From a bacterium (GTDB taxonomy: Bacteria; Patescibacteriota; Microgenomatia; Daviesbacterales; UBA10151): DNA of 64,000 bases. The DNA is taken from assembly GCA_021786105.1 (NCBI GenBank), contig JAJYNW010000026.1, positions 25,072-89,071 on the forward strand, written 5' to 3'. Both the position numbers and the translations under genes were made by a program. Shown in pieces: positions 29,847 to 39,754 of the stretch. Below the pieces are notes generated by a model. The model was not told the DNA's origin. It saw nothing but the letters and a program-made list of their open reading frames with translations, and did no database searches. Every line of letters begins with the position of its first letter. Within the stretch, counting starts at the first letter, position 1.

Positions 29847-30086
29847 TTACCTGCTAATCGTTGGTAATAAAACGTTTTCTGCTGGCTTTACGGCTTTTGT
29901 AGGCCTCTTTATAATCTTACCGGCAGAAACTAGATTATCTTTAGGACTTTTCTTTATTTCTTCGGCTTGCGCTTCTGTTACCTCAATAAAACGGCTTTTA
30001 TTTTCGTCAGCTATCACAGCGTCAAATTCTGCTTTGACAACAAATTGAATTTCGCCGTTTTCATCAAATTGTATAAAGTGTTTCAT
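29847..30086 (-). CDS. Small hypothetical protein whose 3' end contains boundary site B (29859-29887)
   Basis: RBS GAGGAG; follows the fibre-like gene. Confidence 0.6.
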   Translation of the reverse strand: MKHFIQFDENGEIQFVVKAEFDAVIADENKSRFIEVTEAQAEEIKKSPKDNLVSAGKIIKRPTKAVKPAENVLLPTISR

Positions 30087-30089
30087 TGT

Positions 30090-31265
30090 TTAGCTCCTCA
30101 TAAATAAGGCGTATACATCAAGCGAGATGGCCGCGTTAGAATCGCCGTCATAAAGATAAACTGTGTCTCGGTTGATGGTAATTTTTGGTATTCTGGTTTG
30201 CTTCCAATAGCCATTGATCCGAAAAACAATATCTGCCGCAATCTCCGATATTATTTGAATAATCCGATTGCTATCGAGTTTAACAGTCATGGTATAGCCG
30301 TTTCTGCCATCTGCGCCCGGACTTGAAATATCAAAGTACCTATTGGCGCTTGAGCCGTTGGCTCTTGCTCCGGCAATTCTTGCGGCTGTTGTGTTAGAAC
30401 TTTCAATATAAACTTCCACACTATCTGCACCGATAGGGATAAAAGAGGATAAATCTAAGTTTTGCCATGCAGAGTTTGTGGAATTTTGGGCGGAGGCGAG
30501 TGTTTCTGTAAAGTGCATACCAAGACCAGCCTGATCGAGTGTTGGAGTATTAAGATAAGCGCCCATGATAGAGATAAACTCATGGTCTGAAAAAACCGGA
30601 AAAGTTGCCGCAGAATAACCATTGGCATTTAAATTGCCGGTGAAATTAGCTCCTGCTTGGACTAAATAAAGATTAGTTCCCTTTACTAAGGCTCCAATTT
30701 TGAAAGCATCAAAATAAAAATTATAACCGGTGGACGCCGCGTTTTTATCGCTTCTTAAAACTATTTTAATCGTATGGCTTCCTGCAGAAAGCCCTGTTTT
30801 TTCATAAACCAAAAAGCGGGTTAAAAGCAATGCGGAGTAAAGATCAACTGTTGAATCAAGTACGTTGTCAATATAAATATCAATCTTGCCCATATACGGC
30901 CCTTTGGCCGAGAAAATGCCTATTCTGGTACCTGTAAACGAATAGATTAAATAATCAGCAGGCGTTAGGGTGGTGTGATAAGAGCGGTTGTAAAACTGCA
31001 TGGAAGAAGTGGAATAACTCCAACTTCCCACATAAGAAATAGCAGCGTCTAAATCATCAACAATTACTCTTAGTTTATCGGCATCAACAGAATTATTAGG
31101 ATGGTCTAGCTCACTTTGTGTCCGGTGAGATTCTAAAACCTCGCCTGTTTCAGAATGGGCGGACGGGTCTTGGTCGTGAGCCAGAATTTTATTATCTATC
31201 TCCTGTCCTATGGTTGTTGTATCTGTGGCGCTTTTTGCCAAAGCTCCCCAGCATATTGCAGGCAT
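30090..31265 (-). CDS. Putative virion/receptor-binding protein with carbohydrate-binding beta-sandwich
   Basis: Y-GSW...FTGTRI...IDIYID...VDLYS...GSHTIKI...FDAF module. Confidence 0.65.
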   Translation of the reverse strand: MPAICWGALAKSATDTTTIGQEIDNKILAHDQDPSAHSETGEVLESHRTQSELDHPNNSVDADKLRVIVDDLDAAISYVGSWSYSTSSMQFYNRSYHTTLTPADYLIYSFTGTRIGIFSAKGPYMGKIDIYIDNVLDSTVDLYSALLLTRFLVYEKTGLSAGSHTIKIVLRSDKNAASTGYNFYFDAFKIGALVKGTNLYLVQAGANFTGNLNANGYSAATFPVFSDHEFISIMGAYLNTPTLDQAGLGMHFTETLASAQNSTNSAWQNLDLSSFIPIGADSVEVYIESSNTTAARIAGARANGSSANRYFDISSPGADGRNGYTMTVKLDSNRIIQIISEIAADIVFRINGYWKQTRIPKITINRDTVYLYDGDSNAAISLDVYALFMRS

Positions 31266-31419
31266 TAAAAAACTCCTTTCGAAATTTCAACTTCATTTGA
31301 ACGTGACCGCACTATGGCCTTACCCCGTCCATACTCACTCCATAATGTCACCAAACCGGCTTTCAGTCGGTATAAAGTCTGCTCAAGATTTAGTATGTTT
31401 TGTGTTTCTCTCATACAAT

Positions 31420-32214
31420 TTACAATGCCGTACCCACTGGATACACACTTTCAACTAAAGCTCCGGCCGGAACCAAAACCTGCTCCCACGAAAGATTAAC
31501 TTGGTCGCAGTCCGGATCGGTATTATTAAGAACGCCGTTATAAGTAACCCACACATTATCAAACCAAAGATCGCCTGAAACATCGTTTAACTCCAAGGAA
31601 AGCTCCCAATTAGCAGGAACACCCAAAGGAAGCGGAACTGATAAACTTTGCGTTGCCCATCCACTTGCAAGAGGAATTGAAATAACATTTTCATCTGTAA
31701 TATTTTGCCCGCCATAATACCTGTTTGTTCGAAGGATTAGTTTTGCGTAAGGATTGCCGCCAGCAGAAGTTAAGTTTGATTTTCTGGAAAGTTGAAAGGT
31801 TAAAGGAAAAGTTGGTTTTTGATTTTTCGTTTGCCGGATTATAAGCGCAGTTGCACTCCCAGCTAAATTGATATGTCCTACCAAATACTGATGAAATAAA
31901 GATGGTGTTGCAAAACCACCAAGCAGATTTTTAATTCGATATGCTTGATCCTGAACAAAAAGGTTATAACCATTCATTCCCGGGACATTTCCGGCGTCAA
32001 GCCAGGACTGTCTCTGTGGAGCGCTAAATTCCGACCAGCTTTTGGAAACTGTAAATAAATAAGAAATCTCACGAAGACTGTAATAGCGGGAACGAGTCAT
32101 AAAACGGGGATTCTTGCCAATAGAACAGAAGAACGAAAAATCGTACATCTTCAAGGTCTTGTTATAATAAATCTCAAGACCGGCTGGTATAGTAATTCCC
32201 ATTATTCTTGGCAT
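31420..32214 (-). CDS. Putative virion protein: divergent coat-like N-domain plus beta-sandwich
   Basis: SKSWSEFSAPQRQSW...MNGYNLF; GDLWFDNV. Confidence 0.55.
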   Translation of the reverse strand: MPRIMGITIPAGLEIYYNKTLKMYDFSFFCSIGKNPRFMTRSRYYSLREISYLFTVSKSWSEFSAPQRQSWLDAGNVPGMNGYNLFVQDQAYRIKNLLGGFATPSLFHQYLVGHINLAGSATALIIRQTKNQKPTFPLTFQLSRKSNLTSAGGNPYAKLILRTNRYYGGQNITDENVISIPLASGWATQSLSVPLPLGVPANWELSLELNDVSGDLWFDNVWVTYNGVLNNTDPDCDQVNLSWEQVLVPAGALVESVYPVGTAL

Positions 32215-32224
32215 AGTATTTCCT

Positions 32225-32413
32225 TTACCCTACTGGCGGCGTACTTTTGACGCCAAAGTAAAAAGCCACAACTGCCAGAAGTACAGAGCTGACAACTCCA
32301 TCGTGTCCTAATCCGATTAAAACAAACGAGCCGATAACCACAATCATTGCCAAAATATCAGTTGGTTTCATTCTATCCAGAAAATTATAAAATTCTTTCA
32401 TATTCTGTTCCAT
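32225..32413 (-). CDS. Holin-like two-TM protein
   Basis: Two short TM helices, FYFG motif. Confidence 0.55.
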   Translation of the reverse strand: MEQNMKEFYNFLDRMKPTDILAMIVVIGSFVLIGLGHDGVVSSVLLAVVAFYFGVKSTPPVG

Positions 32414-32907
32414 AAAGTTTCGAAGTATCTAGTGAACTCTACTGCTACTTCTCTTGAAACTATTTTTATCGAAGCCTCATCATTAACTGTTACTGCACGC
32501 CTTGACATGTTATGCGATCCTAAAACTGTAATTTCTTGATCTATAATCCAAAGTTTGGCATGAGTAATAGGGGATGATGGCCCAAACTTTGCTAAAGCTC
32601 CGGCTTCTTGTAAATTTAAGATAGTGTTTTTGTTGACCGAATTTAGTGGATGTCTTGGATGTTCTTTGTTTAACAGAACTCGAACAGCAACTTTGCGCCT
32701 TGCGGCTTGCAAGACTTCATAGGAAAGTTGTTGAATACTTGAATCGTGGTCGTGATGATACCATTTCCACTCAAACTGAATAATATCTATACTCGCCTTG
32801 GCTTGCCGAACACAATCTGTGATCGTTCCAATGAAAGCTCTCCCCGGCAAAGGGGTAACTATAGCATTGATATTCTCAACCATTATTTTTGTTTGTAAGT
32901 CTTGCAT
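32398..32907 (-). CDS. PLD-superfamily (Nuc-like) nuclease
   Basis: HAKLWIID...GSHN single HKD motif. Confidence 0.85.
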   Translation of the reverse strand: MQDLQTKIMVENINAIVTPLPGRAFIGTITDCVRQAKASIDIIQFEWKWYHHDHDSSIQQLSYEVLQAARRKVAVRVLLNKEHPRHPLNSVNKNTILNLQEAGALAKFGPSSPITHAKLWIIDQEITVLGSHNMSRRAVTVNDEASIKIVSREVAVEFTRYFETLWNRI

Positions 32908-32934
32908 ACTTAAATTTTTACGCTTCCAAACCTA

Positions 32935-34905
32935 ATCGCAACTCCCAAGCGATGTACTACTAACGAAAGTTTGTCTGCGACACCATCGCTCGTGCCTCGC
33001 CTTATCGCTCGCCCTGCTTCGCAGGTCTCGCTTTGGCTTCGGCACTCGCTACCTTATGGGAAACTCCAACCTTTGTACTTTTCCCAAACCTTGGGTCGCT
33101 ATCGCGCAACCCAAACCGCCAACCTTAAACCCAATTGCGATTCGAAACTCCATCGCCCCCGACAATGCGCGCCGCCCGCCTACGGCGAACATATTTATAA
33201 GAAAAACTTGTAAGGAAAGGCGGCGCTAGGCGGGGGCTTGGGATTACCAAACATAACTCGCACCATTGCCTCTCTCGCCAAGCAAAGCTTGGCTCGTTCG
33301 GCTCCACAACTGCCCTTTGCTCGCAGTGCCTGGCCTCGCTTCGGGCAGCAGAAAAGGGTCGCTCGGTTCCCCCCGCCGCTTCTTCCCCCTAAAACCCCCT
33401 TCTTAGGCAACCCCCCTTAATCAAATGTATTGCCATATTAGGGGGAAGAACGCTCTTGGGGGGATTCTCGCTTAAAAAAGCAGGCAATAATCTATAGTTG
33501 CTTTTTTTACCCTTTCTCTGACGCTACGCAGCGGGAACCCTGTACATCCCGCTGCTTCGCTTATTCGGCGACTCGTCGGAGCCTCAATTTCTCCAACTCG
33601 TCGCCTCCAATTCCCATCGTTTACTGTTCATGTTGCTCTTGCAGGCGCGCTCGCTCCATCTCTTGCGGTCTTCGCTCGCTTGCCGTACCTGCTTTTTTAT
33701 CCCTTTCTGAACGCCGCTTTTTAAAAAGAGTTATCTTTTTGTATAAATCAAAACTTCTCCCGAAGTTTTTCAAGCGGTATTAAGCGGCGTTGAAGTGGAA
33801 TCCGCCAATAGCGGATATGGTGCGAGTAAAACCTATCATCGCCATATTCGGCGGCTGTGACCCCCGCTTATCGCTCACTCGCTTTTATTATATTTTTTAA
33901 GGTGCTCGTTCGCTGGGCGAGAGGGCGCCCTAGGGGGCGCCTCGCCCATGTCATTGCTTTCTAATAACGCTGTACAGTCTCTACCTCGCCGCCCGAAGTA
34001 GCGTTTTCTGAACCCAATCTCATCGGCGGGACGGCTACCTTTTAGGGTGGTTTAGTATCGCCTGCCTACGCGGGGGTGTGCCTTTTCCCCTCTCCTCCGC
34101 GTCGCTTCGCTCCTTGTCGGTGTCCCCCCTTCTGCGCAGGGGCGCTCCCTCTGGTCGCTTACCTGCTTGCGGGGGGAGCCCCCCTCGCCGTCGTATGGCT
34201 TGTGGAAACTCAACCGCTGTACCCGTGCGCCGAACCGCAATCTAAGCCTGTGGGCGCTCGCGCTTATCTTTTAATACTAAGGTCAACTTCGCGCTCGCTT
34301 GGGTTATCGGGGGCGCGGCGCCAAACCTCATATAAGTCGTGAAGTTTTGTGTTGGCGCGCCCCCTCTTTTTGGCTCGTGCGCTTCGCTCGGGGGGCAGGC
34401 AACAGCCGCCGAAAAGAAAAACAAAAGCGTCTGTTTTTCCCTGCTTTCGAGCTAGCGCTTAGCTTTCGTTAGGTTTTCAAAGTGCTTGTTCCCATTGGCT
34501 TCCGATGTTGCGCGGGACAAACTTTTGTCTGTTATCAAGGGCATACTGCCCGCGCTGAAAATTCTTATCGTCGCCGATTATAAAAATACTAATCATAAAT
34601 AATCATCAAATAAATCAATCATTTCTATTTTTTATTTAACCTAACATTTGGTTTAACGTTAAGTTTTTTTATTTTCTATCCCGGAGGGTAGATTTTTTGC
34701 AAACGGTCCCCCTAACCCCATTAACGCCGAAATGAGGCTAGGAGACCATCTGCGAGGAAAGTTTTATCTTTCCTATCCCGTCTGGGCTAGTTCCTCGCTG
34801 AACGGCTGGTGAGACTTAAAGAGTTTTTTTAGGACCCCCGGAGGGAATTGCACCACTCTCTTTTGGTCGCTCCCACCATGCAAACCCCAAGCGACCTGCC
34901 AGAAG
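32935..34905 (-). other. ~2 kb non-coding structured region (candidate ssDNA origin/packaging structure or large ncRNA)
   Basis: GC-rich, many nested inverted repeats, TCGC/GCGA strand bias, AT-rich spacer at ~34575-34680. Confidence 0.7.
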
Positions 34906-34908
34906 TGT

Positions 34909-35286
34909 CTATGTTTTCTTCTTGGCGCTCTTATCAATTTCTTCCATGTCCTCGTCTGAAATTTCAGGATTACCTTTATTCCATACCGGATTATCGCCGT
35001 CTATTTTTTGCACTTCATAGTGGACACTTTCGCCCTGCTTAACTTTAGTAATTTTGATGACTTCTCCCTCTTTTATTTCAGAAAAAAATAAAGCGATCCG
35101 AGATGCAGAGGATGTAAATAGTTTTTTCTCTCCGTCAACTTCGATAGAGTAGCGGGGATTTTCTTTGGTTGGGTCCCGAAAACTTGGCACCATTTTATAA
35201 CCGCAATAGATACCCACCGCGGATTCTCCGGGCTTTAACATTAAATAAGGACTATTCGCTTTGGCGTATTCTTCAAGCTCTCCCAT
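34909..35286 (-). CDS. Putative OB-fold single-stranded DNA-binding protein
   Basis: Beta-strand pattern with aromatic residues and acidic C-terminal tail. Confidence 0.55.
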   Translation of the reverse strand: MGELEEYAKANSPYLMLKPGESAVGIYCGYKMVPSFRDPTKENPRYSIEVDGEKKLFTSSASRIALFFSEIKEGEVIKITKVKQGESVHYEVQKIDGDNPVWNKGNPEISDEDMEEIDKSAKKKT

Positions 35287-35341
35287 AGTTTTATTAATTT
35301 TGGTGCCCGCCAGCTCCTGCCCTGAACCAGCGGGCATATCC

Positions 35342-35953
35342 TTACGGAATAACCAGAGTCTGATCCGGGTAAATTAAATCCGGATTTTGAATCTGGTCTT
35401 TGTTAGCGTTAAAAATGTCCTGCCAGCGATTACCATTTCCGTAAAACTTCTCGCTTATTTTCCAGAGAGAGTCTCCTGGTTGCACTCGGTAGTGGTGAAC
35501 AAGTTTGGCTTCATCAATGGCACTTCCTGTTGGTTCTTTGAGATATTTCATCGGGTCTGTCCAACCGCGCATACCCTCCGGTGTATCACCTTGAACTTTC
35601 ATCCCGAAGTGAAGATGGGGACCGGTCACAAATCCAGTGGCTCCACTTTCTCCGATCTGTTGACCTTTCGTAACATGATCTCCGATCTTCACAATAATTT
35701 TTGAAAGATGCCAATACAAAGATTGACCCCAAGAGTGTTTGATAATTACTCCCATTCCGTCTGAATCTGCTACATCATCATCGAAAATAATTTCTCCATC
35801 ATCTACTGCAAAAACTGGTGTACCTACAGAGGCTTTAAGATCAATTCCGTTATGCGGATAGCCAAACTGTTTCAAATACCAGTCAGTAGCCGCGCCGAAT
35901 GGCCAAGTAATAATCAATTCTCCTTCTAGTGGCTTTCCTATTTTTATTTCCAT
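35342..35953 (-). CDS. M23 peptidase-LysM cell-wall hydrolase (endolysin-like)
   Basis: HNGID, YWHL, TGPHLHF; YRVQPGDSLWKIS...LIYPDQTL; no signal peptide. Confidence 0.92.
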   Translation of the reverse strand: MEIKIGKPLEGELIITWPFGAATDWYLKQFGYPHNGIDLKASVGTPVFAVDDGEIIFDDDVADSDGMGVIIKHSWGQSLYWHLSKIIVKIGDHVTKGQQIGESGATGFVTGPHLHFGMKVQGDTPEGMRGWTDPMKYLKEPTGSAIDEAKLVHHYRVQPGDSLWKISEKFYGNGNRWQDIFNANKDQIQNPDLIYPDQTLVIP

Positions 35954-35954
35954 A

Positions 35955-36089
35955 CTATCCTTGCCATTTATCGCCGTAAAAGTGCTGCATTACTGCACAG
36001 GCCAATAAATAAACGACTTCCTGAATATCCCGCAGTTCCTCTTCTGACGAATTCGGATAAAACTTTTTAATCGCTTCTATCGGCAACAT
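35955..36089 (-). CDS. 44-aa hypothetical protein (absent from ORF track)
   Basis: Fills the gap between cro-like and M23 genes: MLPIEAIKKFYPNSSEEELRDIQEVVYLLACAVMQHFYGDKWQG. Confidence 0.55.
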   Translation of the reverse strand: MLPIEAIKKFYPNSSEEELRDIQEVVYLLACAVMQHFYGDKWQG

Positions 36090-36092
36090 AGC

Positions 36093-36341
36093 TTATTTGC
36101 CTTTCTCTGCTGCACTGATGTACCAGTCTTGAGCAGATATACCCAAAGCCTCACCGACTTTTTTAACATTTGATGGACGAGTGGGTTTTCCTTGTAGTAA
36201 TCTGTTGACTGTTTGTGGTGCAACTTCTGCTTCTAGTGCCAACCCCATTCTGGAAAGACCTTTTTGAAGACGCGCCTTGTCAAAAAGGCTGAAGTTTATT
36301 TTAAGCTCGTTATTGTTTAACTTATTTACATTATCATTCAT
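36093..36341 (-). CDS. Cro-like HTH regulator
   Basis: XRE-type HTH, divergent from the repressor. Confidence 0.8.
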   Translation of the reverse strand: MNDNVNKLNNNELKINFSLFDKARLQKGLSRMGLALEAEVAPQTVNRLLQGKPTRPSNVKKVGEALGISAQDWYISAAEKGK

Positions 36342-36471
36342 AAATGTTAGGAAGATTTAACAGAATAGAAACAGTTTATAAATTTATTCACTTTCAGTCA
36401 ATAAACTTTCTTTTAATTATTGTTGACAATTTTTAACTAATTTGCTACGGTATTATAAGAAGGTTATTTTT

Positions 36472-36933
36472 ATGAGCAAGAAGATAAAAGAAATGAAAAA
36501 ATCTCCACTAAGAAGTCCAGAAGAATTTAGAGATTTGGCAGACTACCTTTACTATTTGCGAACACACCGAAAGTTAAGTATGCGGGATGTCGAGCTTGCG
36601 GCTAAAGAGCTTCTCCGAAGAAAAATTATAAAAAAAGAAGGTCTTATTTCCTATGCGTATATCTCCAATATAGAAAGCCGCAGGGTAAGCAATCCCTCTC
36701 CGATTATTTTAAGAACCCTAGCTCTTATCTTTGGTGTAGATCAAGAAATGATGTTTGAAAAAGCTGGTTACCTTGATAAAAAAAGACCTAAAATAGAAGA
36801 TGACGTGGCTTTTACTTTAATGTTAAAAGAAGTTCCCAGAATGACAGATGATGAGAAACAATCGCTTTTAGACTATATAGATTTTGTTAAGTCTAGGCGG
36901 AGAAAATATGAGAAAGGCCCTAAAAAGGGCTAG
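36472..36933 (+). CDS. XRE-family repressor (ImmR/cI-like)
   Basis: LSMRDV...ISYAYISNIE...NPSP-IL--LA. Confidence 0.85.
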   Translation: MSKKIKEMKKSPLRSPEEFRDLADYLYYLRTHRKLSMRDVELAAKELLRRKIIKKEGLISYAYISNIESRRVSNPSPIILRTLALIFGVDQEMMFEKAGYLDKKRPKIEDDVAFTLMLKEVPRMTDDEKQSLLDYIDFVKSRRRKYEKGPKKG

Positions 36934-37351
36934 GGAAATTTTACAGCAATGTAATCTATCCTCTGCCCCAATAAATTTAGATAAAATTATAGAGCGTGAA
37001 GGCATAAACCTTGATGACTGGCGTTTTGCCGGAAGAATCAAAGAGGCTTACCTTGGCGATAGCATTGGCATAAAAAATTCAGTTAATCCAAAGAGGAGGC
37101 GCGAGTTAATAGCTCATGCACTAGGACATCATTTTCTTCATACGGGAAACCATTTATATTTTGAAGAACACGACCAGTTTGTTACTTTCAAACAAGAATA
37201 CGAAGCTCAATGCTTCGCGGCAGAACTTCTTATACCTACCTTAATACTCAAGCCGCTAAAAACTTGGCCAGTCCACGAATTAGCCGAGCATTTTTCCGTA
37301 ACCGAAGAATTAGTAAAATTTCGCTTAAAAGTTTTAGAGGGGGAATCATAA
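36908..37351 (+). CDS. ImmA/IrrE-family metallopeptidase-like protein (HALGH variant)
   Basis: RRR-LIAHALGH...EYEAQCFAAELLIP. Confidence 0.85.
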   Translation: MRKALKRAREILQQCNLSSAPINLDKIIEREGINLDDWRFAGRIKEAYLGDSIGIKNSVNPKRRRELIAHALGHHFLHTGNHLYFEEHDQFVTFKQEYEAQCFAAELLIPTLILKPLKTWPVHELAEHFSVTEELVKFRLKVLEGES

Positions 37352-37980
37352 TGGCTATCGCAATGCTTATTTTTATGGATGAATCCGGTGACACTGGATT
37401 TAAGTTTGGTAAAACTTCCAGTAAGTTTTTCGTTTTAGTTATCGTGATTTTTGATAGTTTGAGTGTTGCCGAAGAAGCAAACGAAGCCGTAAAGAAAGTC
37501 AGAAAAGAGTTAAAACTGCCAGAGAATTTTGAGTTTAAGTTTAGCACCGGTACATCAGATAAGGTGAAACGTGCTTTCTTACAAAAATTATCTAAATACA
37601 ATTTTCGTTATAGAACAGTGATTGTTGATAAAACCATCCTTGCCAAGCGTGAACCTTTACACCCCAAAGACAGTTTATACATGCTGGTTGCAGATCATCT
37701 CTTTTTAAGAGCGGAGGAGCGAATGAAAAACGCTTCTATTTTTATAGATCGTATTTCTAAATCCTTTGTGGATGATTTTGATGGTTATTTAAGAAAACGA
37801 CTAAACACTAATATTGAAAAGATTATCGGGAGAGTAAAACATCAGGACTCAAGAAGTAATAATTTACTCCAACTTGCCGATATGGTTTGCGGGGCAATTT
37901 ATCGAAAATACAATCGTAGTGATGATAAGTTCTACAAGATTATCAAAAAAAGAGAGGAAGATTTATGGAAACCTTATTGA
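37351..37980 (+). CDS. DUF3800 protein
   Basis: IFMDESGD...S----LQLADMVCG. Confidence 0.85.
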   Translation: MAIAMLIFMDESGDTGFKFGKTSSKFFVLVIVIFDSLSVAEEANEAVKKVRKELKLPENFEFKFSTGTSDKVKRAFLQKLSKYNFRYRTVIVDKTILAKREPLHPKDSLYMLVADHLFLRAEERMKNASIFIDRISKSFVDDFDGYLRKRLNTNIEKIIGRVKHQDSRSNNLLQLADMVCGAIYRKYNRSDDKFYKIIKKREEDLWKPY

Positions 37981-37984
37981 GTAG

Positions 37985-38082
37985 GAAAAAGTCGATCTCT
38001 GTGGCCAAGACGGATCACTTTTTATGGTGCCGACATTCGCTCCCTAACAGTAAGGTACTTTCACCACTGAGATCATTCGGTA
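37985..38082 (-). ncRNA. Candidate DUF3800-associated structured RNA
   Basis: Closing stem 37994-38004/38064-38074; convergent TTGATT-17-TATATT promoter at 38116-38088. Confidence 0.5.
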
Positions 38083-38125
38083 ACTGTAATATAGCAAATA
38101 TTGGGTCAAAAATCAAGGGGAAATT

Positions 38126-39643
38126 ATGAGAGCTTTAATCTATGTTAGGGTTTCAACAGACGAACAGGCCGATAAAGGCTTATCGTTACCTGCCCAGCAG
38201 GAAGCCTGTTTAGAATACATAAAAATTAAGCATTGGACTATTGACCCTAAAAAAGACATCTTTGTTGACGCCGGAGAATCAGCACGAACCGCTAATCGCC
38301 CAGCCCTCCAAGAAATGCTATCCCGCTGTAAGAAAGATAAAGAAGTCAATGTAGTTTTGGTCCATAAACTCGACAGGTTAGCCCGCAATGTAGCCGACCA
38401 CGCGGCTATAAGGGGAATCCTGCGAAAATATGATATACAGCTTTGTTCTGTTGTTGAGCCTGTTGATGACAGCCCCACGGGAGCGCTTCTTGAAAATATT
38501 ATGGCTTCCGTTGCAGAGTTCTATTCTGCTAATCTAGGACAGGAGGTAAAAAAAGGAATGAAGCAGGTACTTAAACAGGGGAGGTATCCGGGACGTGCGC
38601 CTGTCGGTTATCTTAATAAGGATATATTTGAGTCGGACGGCACTGTTACCAAAACAATAATTATGGATGCGATCAAAGCCCCTGCAATCCAGCAGGCTTT
38701 CAGAGTATTTGCCACTAACCAATGGACTCAAGAACAGTTATGCGATGAGCTTAATAAAAACGGCTTTAAGACGTTTTTTAATAATGGAGTAAGACCATGG
38801 AAATTGCACGGTATCCTCACAAACAAATTTTATATGGGTATTGTTGTGTGGGGCGGAGAAGAAGTGCAGGGAACCCATGAACCCTTGGTGTCTCCCGAAC
38901 TATTTTACCGAGTGCAAGACGTCTTGAGAATAAGGACTAAGAATACAACTCGCCAAAGAGCGGCAATGTTTTCTCTAAGGAGAATTCTTTATTGCCCCAA
39001 GTGTGGCAATAGATATGTTGCAGAAACCCACAAAGGCGGGCGGTTCAGCTATTATCGCTGTAGCTCCGCTTCCCGCTATGGTATGCACTGTGACCAAAAA
39101 ATGGCGGCGGAAAAAGATTTATTAGCACAGATTCTTGAAATCTTCAAACAAGTGGAGCTCCCCGAAGAACTTGTTACCCTTGCAAAAATGAACGTTAAAA
39201 AACTAGAGGAAGATCGAGTAAGCGGAGTAACAAATGAACGCAGGCACTTGCGGGAAAGAATAAGTAAACTTGAAGAAAAACAGCAGAAACTTCTTGATGA
39301 CCGGCTGGAAGGTCTTATTGATAAAGAACTATGCTACCAAAAGCTAGCCCTAATCAAAAGAGATATTGACCTTGCCAACGTAAGGCTTAATGAAATCCAA
39401 CAGGAGAACGACGCAAGCTTTGTCGCTCTTAATAAAACAATTGATGTTTTAGGAAATATCTACGAGATATACAAAATGTCCGACCCGCCAAGGCGTACTC
39501 TTTATAACCAATCTTTCTTCGAAAAGATCATGGTTGACCAAAAACGAATTACCGAGATAAAATGGCGTGCACCGTTTAGCTCGTTATATCGGGATAAACG
39601 TGATTCTGGTTTACCCCCCTATGGAGCGGGAGAGGGGATTTGA
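38126..39643 (+). CDS. Large serine recombinase (integrase)
   Basis: YVRVSTDEQ, KLDRLARN, recombinase domain, CPKCG...YYRC...C zinc ribbon, coiled coil. Confidence 0.95.
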   Translation: MRALIYVRVSTDEQADKGLSLPAQQEACLEYIKIKHWTIDPKKDIFVDAGESARTANRPALQEMLSRCKKDKEVNVVLVHKLDRLARNVADHAAIRGILRKYDIQLCSVVEPVDDSPTGALLENIMASVAEFYSANLGQEVKKGMKQVLKQGRYPGRAPVGYLNKDIFESDGTVTKTIIMDAIKAPAIQQAFRVFATNQWTQEQLCDELNKNGFKTFFNNGVRPWKLHGILTNKFYMGIVVWGGEEVQGTHEPLVSPELFYRVQDVLRIRTKNTTRQRAAMFSLRRILYCPKCGNRYVAETHKGGRFSYYRCSSASRYGMHCDQKMAAEKDLLAQILEIFKQVELPEELVTLAKMNVKKLEEDRVSGVTNERRHLRERISKLEEKQQKLLDDRLEGLIDKELCYQKLALIKRDIDLANVRLNEIQQENDASFVALNKTIDVLGNIYEIYKMSDPPRRTLYNQSFFEKIMVDQKRITEIKWRAPFSSLYRDKRDSGLPPYGAGEGI

Positions 39644-39696
39644 ACCCCCGACATCCTCGTTGGCAACGAGGCACTCTACCACTGAGTTACTCCCGC
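39622..39696 (-). tRNA. tRNA-Gly(GCC), integration target
   Basis: Cloverleaf, CCTCG-TT-GCC-AA-CGAGG, CCA end. Confidence 0.95.
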
Positions 39697-39754
39697 AAAC
39701 ATATAAACACTCAACTCTAAATTGTATCTCAAACCGCTATTTCTGCTATGCAGA

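Follow-up and report, generated by a model that had tools for sequence, protein, structure and literature searches.

A patchily distributed, structured non-coding element in Daviesbacteria-like genomes and the case for a very large RNA

Why does a bacterium with a 1.04-Mb genome (26 contigs, rated 92% complete) carry about 2 kb of DNA without a gene, and does this DNA work as RNA, as folded single-stranded DNA (ssDNA) or as neither? We addressed this question for positions 32935–34905 of a 64,000-nt stretch, hereafter the window, of contig JAJYNW010000026.1 from a member of the Daviesbacterales (assembly GCA_021786105.1). The element lies between a gene for a PLD-like nuclease and an unnamed 142-aa gene, and its folded strand is taken as minus. 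A preliminary description of the sequence had proposed a non-coding region that folds as functional ssDNA on the minus strand. Our reading, which we regard as reasonably probable, is an undescribed family of very large non-coding RNA (ncRNA) made from the minus strand in Microgenomates/Daviesbacteria-like members of the Candidate Phyla Radiation (CPR). The region is indeed non-coding, the longest open reading frame (ORF) having 88 aa and stops being present in all six frames. Its G+C content is 0.50–0.52, against ~0.40 in the rest of the window and the genome. The strand asymmetry counted by hand before was borne out as well: the plus strand holds TCGC 40 times and GCGA nine times, and 500 dinucleotide-preserving shuffles gave 16.0±3.4 copies of TCGC (maximum 28). 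The same shuffles gave 4.9±2.1 copies of TCGCT and 0.6±0.7 of GCTTCGC, which are present 22 and four times. Minus-strand R-GCGA-R (A/G-GCGA-G 15, A-GCGA-A 5, others) accounts for 24 of the 40 TCGC sites and recurs at helix ends, with G·A pairs after a C-G pair. The TCGC excess is therefore the plus-strand shadow of a recurring minus-strand motif.

We evaluated selection on the element with a three-way alignment of the window and two genomes of the same genus, G009 (91% identical) and G013 (87%), including flanks. Variable columns made up 20.9% of the PLD-like coding sequence (CDS) and 24.5% of the 142-aa CDS, both with 3-nt periodicity (p=3.5e-6 and p=1e-15). The proportion was 9.1% in 33847–34417 (periodicity p=0.87), 12.9% in 33320–33846 (p=0.99) and 9.7% in 34680–34905 (p=0.19); the segment 34418–34584 reached 27.5%, again with no periodicity. 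Because it has fewer variable columns than the flanking CDS and lacks codon periodicity, the element is under selection, and not as a protein-coding gene. The conserved structured part comprises ~33250–34580 and 34695–34905, and the rest of the 32935–34905 originally delimited is variable. The parts of the element, with strands as taken here, are:

32935–33249, minus strand: variable end with large indels between homologues, small GAA/GUA-triloop hairpins and dense TCGC
33250–33846, minus strand: second conserved structured block (RNAalifold consensus)
33256–33265/33818–33827: long-range helix of this block
33380–33392/33438–33450, 33473–33484/33688–33699, 33523–33536/33547–33560, 33569–33574/33601–33606 and 33710–33719/33782–33791: helices of this block
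33847–34417, minus strand: family-defining closed domain, with further helices besides P1, P2 and its core hairpin, and with two tandem G·A loops that are conserved
33847–33858/34402–34413: closing helix P1
33860–33870/34067–34077: helix P2
33914–33948: core hairpin with CUAG loop
33973–33988: near-invariant strand
34418–34584, minus strand: segment between spacer and domain, with a putative TATAAT and a stem with variable interior
34585–34680, no strand: AT-rich spacer, ~27% G+C, poorly conserved, with a 10–13 nt tandem repeat
34675–34692, plus strand: terminator-like hairpin followed by T6, at the right edge of the AT-rich spacer
34695–34905, minus strand: conserved structured segment including the G·U-rich hairpin 34699–34753, directly after the stop of the 142-aa ORF

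The structure could be examined comparatively, as the 79-nt piece 33914–33991 also matched other loci in related genomes. A core pattern derived from the alignment of those loci was found at 36 metagenome loci, once in the window's own genome and in 14 of the order's 96 genomes, where a reversed control matched nothing; viral contigs held no copy. Six loci that were partial and 11 that were near-duplicates (identity of 97% or more) were set aside before the family alignment, and 25 non-redundant sequences entered the covariation analysis of the domain. All members share a domain of 430–570 nt. Its closing helix P1, in most members GUGGCGGC/GCCGCCAC, covaries to GUCGCGG/CCGCGAC, GGUGGC/GCCACC and GGAAGCGGC/GCCGCUUCC, and two CCCCCGC/GCGGGGG helices divide it into two sub-domains. 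Further features are the core hairpin, with its constant CUAG loop on a covarying stem, several other covarying helices, and near-invariant joining strands such as TACAGTCTCTACC on the plus strand.

RNAalifold predicted 44 pairs in the domain from the 25 sequences, 18 of them with compensatory double changes. In a curated structure of ten helices and 72 pairs, 89.2% of cells were paired, compared with 78.5% after shuffling (reached by 0 of 500 shuffles) and 47–54% when partners were slid. Both sides had changed in 36 of the 72 pairs (24.8 shuffled, 11–20 slid), and the covariation score was 0.276 (0.117 shuffled, 0.064–0.085 slid). One helix, H5a (CCGA/TCGG), was dropped, since variation breaks its pairing and it competes with an extended H6, which one covariation supports (L020). 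For the block 33250–33846, ten window-type sequences gave 153 consensus pairs, 11 of them compensatory, including the long-range helix 33256–33265/33818–33827. The window-type alignments exclude L051, which has 46% identity; this RNAalifold run was made without L036, and the pair comparison of 34640–34910 given below without L024 and L029, where sequence was missing. Domain covariation together with long-range pairing in 33250–33846 means that the folded structure is real and extends beyond local hairpins. Folding of the domain exceeded that of shuffled controls with RNA and DNA parameters: z was –3.06 for minus RNA, –3.48 for minus DNA, –2.96 for plus RNA and –2.10 for plus DNA, with 0, 0, 0 and 5 of 100 shuffles folding as well. 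Windows of 150 nt showed only modest z on average.

The individual stems proposed earlier were recovered. Those at 33380–33392/33438–33450 (13 nt) and 33473–33484/33688–33699 (12 nt) are 100% complementary, and 33710–33719/33782–33791 (AACGCCGCTT/AAGCGGCGTT) is also paired in the RNAalifold consensus. A hairpin placed at 33528–33555 was found as 33523–33536/33547–33560, and that at 33914–33948 is the conserved core of the family. The minus-strand triloops are present too, CCTGC-TTC-GCAGG at 33012–33024 giving GAA and CGCC-TAC-GGCG at 33176–33186 giving GUA; GAA triloops and tandem G·A motifs are recurrent and conserved across the family. Two further candidates were rejected. A closing helix for the whole region (32963–32988/34503–34528) is 73% complementary and is not kept in G009 or G013, and was taken as chance. 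A second domain copy in the upstream block was not found, as a covariance model of 181 positions (R1), run with filters off, matched only 33914–34096 (135.6 bits), the next match having 10 bits.

We then used R1 to determine the distribution of the family. Matches came from 20 of the order's 96 genomes, spread over 13 of 63 genera at 1–2 copies per genome, and from none of several order genomes rated 100% complete or closed in 1–3 contigs; the element is accordingly accessory and patchy. In the class, ten of 151 sampled genomes matched, including a 182-bit match in another family. The patchiness, combined with high scores in different genera and families, suggests horizontal movement. Searches of phage, plasmid and viral-contig collections gave no match to the element. 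Many family loci end at contig ends, as repeated or strain-variable DNA does. At most loci the core lies within a G+C-rich, ORF-poor stretch with the same TCGC excess, ORF-free for ~1 kb; neighbouring ORFs of at least 150 aa end ~300–950 nt before the core and start 365–804 nt after it. The window copy is of an expanded subtype, represented by 11 loci, in which the domain has long insertions and the second conserved block 33250–33846 is present.

Several features indicate that the folded strand is probably minus. Unpaired residues read as minus consist of A 38, G 23, U 22 and C 17%. This resembles the unpaired residues of RNase P RNA from the same genome (A 50, G 21, U 18, C 11%) and thus favours the minus strand, since a plus reading would be U- and C-rich. 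Two 2×2 internal loops read TC/TC on plus in 21/25 and 17/25 sequences, equivalent to tandem G·A/A·G on minus, and mismatches inside helices were Y·Y on plus in 95 cases and R·R in 37. The small hairpins carry minus-strand GAA triloops on covarying stems, except that in one member the loop is GUAA, which is of the GNRA type. The less frequent loop variants CTAA and TCAA keep their self-complementarity only when read on minus, as UUAG and UUGA. The consensus energy of 33250–33846 was –347 for minus versus –318 for plus, and pairs predicted on both strands there showed seven Watson-Crick/G·U switches on minus versus two on plus. In 34640–34910, seven pairs with a one-sided change stay paired on minus through G·U, and one pair is broken in two of nine sequences. 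As RNA, 34670–34910 folded to –88.3 kcal/mol on minus (z –2.66) versus –73.2 on plus (z –1.36). On the unpaired A and G, the tandem G·A and the G·U exchanges, the minus strand named in the preliminary description probably holds; the test by wobble pairs in the domain is ambiguous.

A number of results weigh on the other side. The curated domain helices of 22 sequences contain 1498 Watson-Crick, 42 G·T and 27 A·C cells, which leaves the strand ambiguous, and domain pairs predicted on both strands gave GT 70 versus AC 58. Wobble pairs make up ~2–3% in the domain, which is low for RNA. Consensus energies of the domain were –174.2 for plus versus –172.9 for minus. By single-sequence RNA minimum free energy (MFE), minus was better in 17/25 and plus in 8/25, with a mean difference of 1.25±7.9 kcal/mol, and the window's own domain folds better on plus (–236.6 versus –225.9). 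In the shorter family members the next gene after the domain is on plus in 18 of the 21 loci with an ORF there, starting at the distance from the core given above, and this placement would also fit a plus-strand RNA or leader. The terminator-like hairpin 34675–34692 lies on plus, and a sigma-70 scan of the region found no promoter. Finally, the data show selection, pairing within the molecule, membership of a family and patchiness, and strand, RNA nature, a single transcript and function are what we infer.

The choice between RNA and ssDNA turns on other evidence. Excess folding under both parameter sets, a minus preference with DNA parameters (minus better in 22 of 25 family members, plus in two) and covariation do not separate the two. 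The hairpin 34699–34753, which contains about six G·U pairs, does bear on the choice: it reached –35.6 kcal/mol (z –6.79) as minus RNA, –11.1 (z –2.45) as minus DNA and –20.1 (z –3.13) as plus RNA, and is stable only as minus-strand RNA. Where homologues differ in this hairpin, G·U and Watson-Crick pairs replace each other. No Rep/HUH, relaxase, reverse transcriptase (RT) or single-strand-binding (SSB) domain was recognised by Pfam, PHROGs or NCBIfam in the proteins of the surrounding module, where unannotated proteins could hide one, nor among 20 flank proteins of nine other family loci. One metatranscriptome run (X20) gave a single 190-nt contig on 33413–33602 with four differences, the only cover of 30000–38000 in that run, the uncovered parts carrying no weight as evidence; it is strandless and DNA carry-over is possible, making it a weak hint. 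Two runs labelled METAGENOMIC RNA-Seq (X7 and X8) cover window 30000–38000 evenly, genes and spacers alike, with several strain variants; they are probably DNA and hence say nothing on expression. Based on the G·U-dependent hairpin, the lack of a recognised ssDNA-making gene and the one weak metatranscriptome contig, RNA fits better than ssDNA. Of the functional folded ssDNA first proposed, selection and intramolecular folding stand, on conservation above the flanking CDS and on covariation; DNA rather than RNA found no support. Two outcomes that would have told against that proposal, missing covariation and a decayed gene, did not occur.

On the minus-strand RNA reading, a transcript of ~1.6 kb would run from near 34575 to ~32935, possibly joined to the structured segment 34695–34905 behind the 142-aa gene. 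A minus-strand TATAAT at 34577–34582, read from the alignment and kept in 3/3 homologues, is a candidate promoter, not reported by the sigma-70 scan; counts in the promoter and terminator scan of the region were not above shuffles, and that scan gave no sigma-70-like promoter. In the same segment, the stem GCGCGGG 34510–34516/CCCGCGC 34549–34555 encloses a variable interior. The hallmark of the family is the 430–570 nt domain, which P1 closes and which falls into two sub-domains; its helices covary, its A/G-rich joining strands are near-invariant, and it has sheared tandem G·A loops and hairpin loops of GAA/GNRA type. As its mechanism we favour a structural RNA that folds by itself and acts in trans, belonging to mobile or variable gene cassettes and being of the same kind as GOLLD and ROOL; its role would be that of a scaffold or particle and not of a cis-regulator. 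Self-association could, speculatively, proceed through the conserved self-complementary loops CUAG, present in 38 of 44 distinct sequences, and UCGA, present in 11; of the 37 sequences examined for the latter, 19 lack such a hairpin. Against such oligomerisation, the idea draws on loop palindromes alone, and two of the 44 sequences (CTAT) break the palindrome. A stronger version, in which this would be the first member of the largest structured bacterial RNA class outside the ribosome, borne on mobile CPR cassettes and either assembling through CUAG/UCGA into a multimeric RNA-only particle or acting as a ribozyme, strikes us as rather unlikely.

We weighed this reading against alternatives that share parts of the evidence. 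The same fold could belong to a plus-strand RNA, or to a 5' leader co-oriented with the following gene and ending at 34675–34692. Such an RNA would account for the plus orientation, in 18 of the 21 loci having one, of the nearest ORF of 150 aa or more beyond the domain, for the terminator-like hairpin with its T6, for the G·T surplus over A·C in the domain helices (42 versus 27) and for the lower plus-strand MFE of the window's domain. Its unpaired residues, however, would be U 38 and C 23%, unlike the RNase P RNA and transfer-messenger RNA (tmRNA) of the genome, its conserved 2×2 loops would be U·C/C·U, and the loop variants would lose self-complementarity. The hairpin 34699–34753 and the upstream block also favour minus, and the neighbouring genes in the window are all on minus. 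Downstream genes have their own TGnTATACT box 7–8 nt before the ATG, so that no leader is needed, and the gene on the other side of the element points either way (10 minus, 7 plus), which speaks against a cis-regulatory leader. We consider a plus-strand product unlikely. Also unlikely is a patchwork of a 3' untranslated structure behind the 142-aa gene, a domain RNA of ~0.5 kb, and small RNAs or protein-binding repeats in 32935–33846. The AT-rich variable spacer does split the region, shorter family members share only the domain, 32935–33250 is poorly conserved, and short-type loci carry locus-specific upstream palindromic repeats resembling protein sites; yet the long-range helix 33256–33265/33818–33827 and others tie 33250–33846 together, this block adjoins P1 with no gap and equals the domain in strength of conservation, and the same minus-strand signals occur on both sides of the spacer.

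Folded minus-strand ssDNA, serving as a single-strand origin, packaging signal or transfer signal of the mobile module, would make sense of the recurring and conserved C-G-closed GAA triloops and tandem G·A, of the minus preference with DNA parameters (22/25 members; window z –3.48 versus –2.10), of the rarity of wobble pairs in the domain and of the position of the window copy within an integrated mobile module, and covariation is as compatible with DNA as with RNA. We nevertheless rate it very unlikely: the hairpin 34699–34753 needs its six or so G·U pairs and is weak as DNA, the module and the 20 flank proteins of nine loci yielded no recognised Rep/HUH, relaxase, RT or SSB, most members lie between ordinary chromosomal and defence-type genes, and the phage, plasmid and viral-contig collections held no match. 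We also know of no precedent among DNA origins for a domain of 430–570 nt that has multiple junctions and invariant joining strands. There is a slim chance that the core domain, poor in wobble pairs, works as folded ssDNA. A decayed gene, or a double-stranded DNA (dsDNA) regulatory or recombination region for the serine recombinase, would suit the location in a mobile module and the palindromic centres CCTAGG and CTCGAG, which could be protein sites. It is highly improbable given the stops in all frames without an ORF, the lack of codon periodicity, fewer changes than in the adjoining CDS, and members that occur with no recombinase nearby. Moreover, pairs 450–560 nt apart covary, which dsDNA sites do not need.

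We next compared the element with known systems. No Rfam 15 family matches it: the whole window at gathering thresholds gave only six tRNA matches, 32500–35300 at E up to 10 gave two chance miRNA matches of ~19 bits, and eight family loci at E up to 1 gave one 27-bit match versus a 208-bit threshold. It is neither RNase P RNA nor tmRNA, both of which lie elsewhere in the genome (G000:C7, 108.5 bits; G000:C17, 117.8 bits); such housekeeping RNAs are near-universal, and the family of the element was found in only 20 of 96 order genomes. A search for 6S RNA gave only a sub-threshold match, elsewhere. TIGR arrays occur in phages and CPR bacteria; their tandem units are processed into RNAs of 36 nt, and a Tas protein with a Nop domain is encoded next to them (PMC12045711). 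Like these, the element would be an ncRNA locus of CPR bacteria and mobile elements, and it has palindromic stems and small motifs that are conserved. A TIGR array was rejected, as the only tandem repeat is the AT-rich one of 10–13 nt and no Nop-domain neighbour was found. Single-strand origins (sso) of rolling-circle plasmids, Frpo/ssi promoters and filamentous-phage origins are single or double hairpins of ~100–330 nt next to Rep or transfer genes. The element resembles them in strand-specific folding, in DNA-stable GAA-type triloops with G·A and, in the window, in lying on mobile DNA. It differs in its closed multi-helix domain of 430–570 nt within 1–2 kb, the lack of a recognised Rep or relaxase and the G·U-dependent hairpin.

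Large, intricately folded bacterial RNAs (OLE, GOLLD, ROOL) are rare, and to our knowledge none of the large ornate ncRNAs is from the CPR. OLE RNA, of ~600 nt, is encoded by a chromosomal gene of Firmicutes with fixed protein partners; the element differs in having variable neighbours, a patchy distribution and no Rfam match. OLE resembles the element as read here in being a large structured RNA with high conservation, whose biochemical function is unclear. GOLLD and ROOL are large ornate ncRNAs, often in prophages, that form RNA-only homo-oligomeric assemblies (PMC12286853). As far as that account goes, the element is like GOLLD and ROOL in its hundreds of nucleotides of conserved, covarying multi-junction structure, its non-coding nature, its patchiness and its link to mobile or variable DNA, and its conserved self-complementary loops could likewise mediate self-association. 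It is unlike them in its phylum (CPR), in having no match in Rfam 15 or phage collections, and in its length, ORF-free for ~1 kb in most loci and 1.6–2 kb here. With more than 400 nt of non-coding sequence and a conserved multi-helix structure with covariation, it would belong with GOLLD and ROOL as a functional kind, not as a homology family. A literature search found no description of the family; supplementary motif catalogues, which lie beyond such a search, may list it. Most likely it is a new and unusually long family of a kind already known, the large ornate bacterial ncRNAs.

Each new class of large RNA has opened new RNA biology, the latest being RNA-only nanocages. The CPR is huge, barely studied and has minimal genomes, in which 1–2 kb of non-coding DNA is costly. 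The family's conservation, spread and variable or defence-type neighbours point to an RNA-based function of CPR mobile elements that is invisible to protein annotation. The domain also provides a new covariation-rich structural target of more than 450 nt. With GAA and G·A chemistry that is strand-specific, the element lends itself to a clean test of whether motifs of this type are ever a sign of functional ssDNA.

The surroundings of the domain at other family loci have features of their own. One flank is ordinary (glutamine synthetase, M16 peptidase, glycosyltransferase), and the other is variable or defence-type (HsdM, SNase, an OLD-like ATPase, a protein with a Zeta-toxin domain, M23 peptidases and low-complexity proteins). 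Genes adjacent to the domain (L004, L018, L019, L022, L035 and L047; L021, L026, L046 and L054) encode conserved low-complexity N-termini beginning MADDPNQ or MDNLPKDP. The C-terminal sequence of the low-complexity flank proteins, which has no Pfam match, resembles a winged helix. The TGnTATACT box of these same genes, lying just 7–8 nt before the ATG, suggests leaderless mRNAs. In L035 and L046 the element and its adjacent gene stand behind the M16 gene in opposite orientations, as if one cassette. A 12–14 nt motif, TTTCCACCATTT, is found between P1 and the gene beside it; L018 and L030 carry it in one orientation and L005, L019, L022, L035 and L047 in the inverse one, and L004 has a further copy upstream. 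This motif may serve to bind a protein or be part of a promoter that can invert. Short-type loci (e.g., L006, L014, L015, L027, L049) have several copies of a palindrome of their own ~100–400 nt before the core. These locus-specific palindromes, which read CCACAATTGTGG at seven loci and resemble ACCGTAACGGT at three and CCATAATGG at one, are reminiscent of iterons, operator arrays or covarying hairpins. Just outside P1, short-type loci such as L004, L017 and L046 also have a conserved CCCACCCACCC tract (GGGUGGGUGGG on minus), absent from the window copy, which may be a G-quadruplex-like or C-rich pairing element.

In the window, the element is part of a larger insertion. In three genomes of the genus (G007, G012, G018), the match to the window is confined to the part from a tRNA-Gly gene rightwards. 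On other contigs, G009 (G009:C7) carries window 32621–39590 and G013 (G013:C15) window 29873–38575, at ~80% identity. Since genomes of the genus differ in this way to the left of tRNA-Gly, the element makes up about one fifth of an integrated module of ~9.7 kb, which is probably a mobile element. Its relevant features are:

29870–39700: integrated module of ~9.7 kb, shared with G009 and G013 and not found in three other genomes of the genus
32398–32907, minus strand: PLD-like nuclease gene, whose start codon at 32907 adjoins the variable end of the element
34909–35337, minus strand: unnamed 142-aa gene, followed by the M23+LysM peptidase gene
38126–39643: large serine recombinase gene, overlapping the end of tRNA-Gly
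39622–39696: tRNA-Gly

The module encodes proteins of 79, 391, 264 and 62 aa (no named family), the PLD-like nuclease, the 142-aa protein, M23+LysM, helix-turn-helix regulators, DUF3800 and the serine recombinase. The 391-, 264- and 142-aa proteins belong to no named family in Pfam, PHROGs or NCBIfam. For the 391-aa protein, matches were limited to PHROGs without a known function and a weak one to a tail protein, and an Atlas search with it gave no lead. The 142-aa protein has only 11 close homologues, all unnamed, and its AlphaFold model (pLDDT 42) was unusable. A search for att repeats of tRNA-Gly that would delimit the island found none. ARAGORN located eight tRNA genes in the 64 kb (8870–52896), several of them clustered at 39.6–45.4 kb beside the module.

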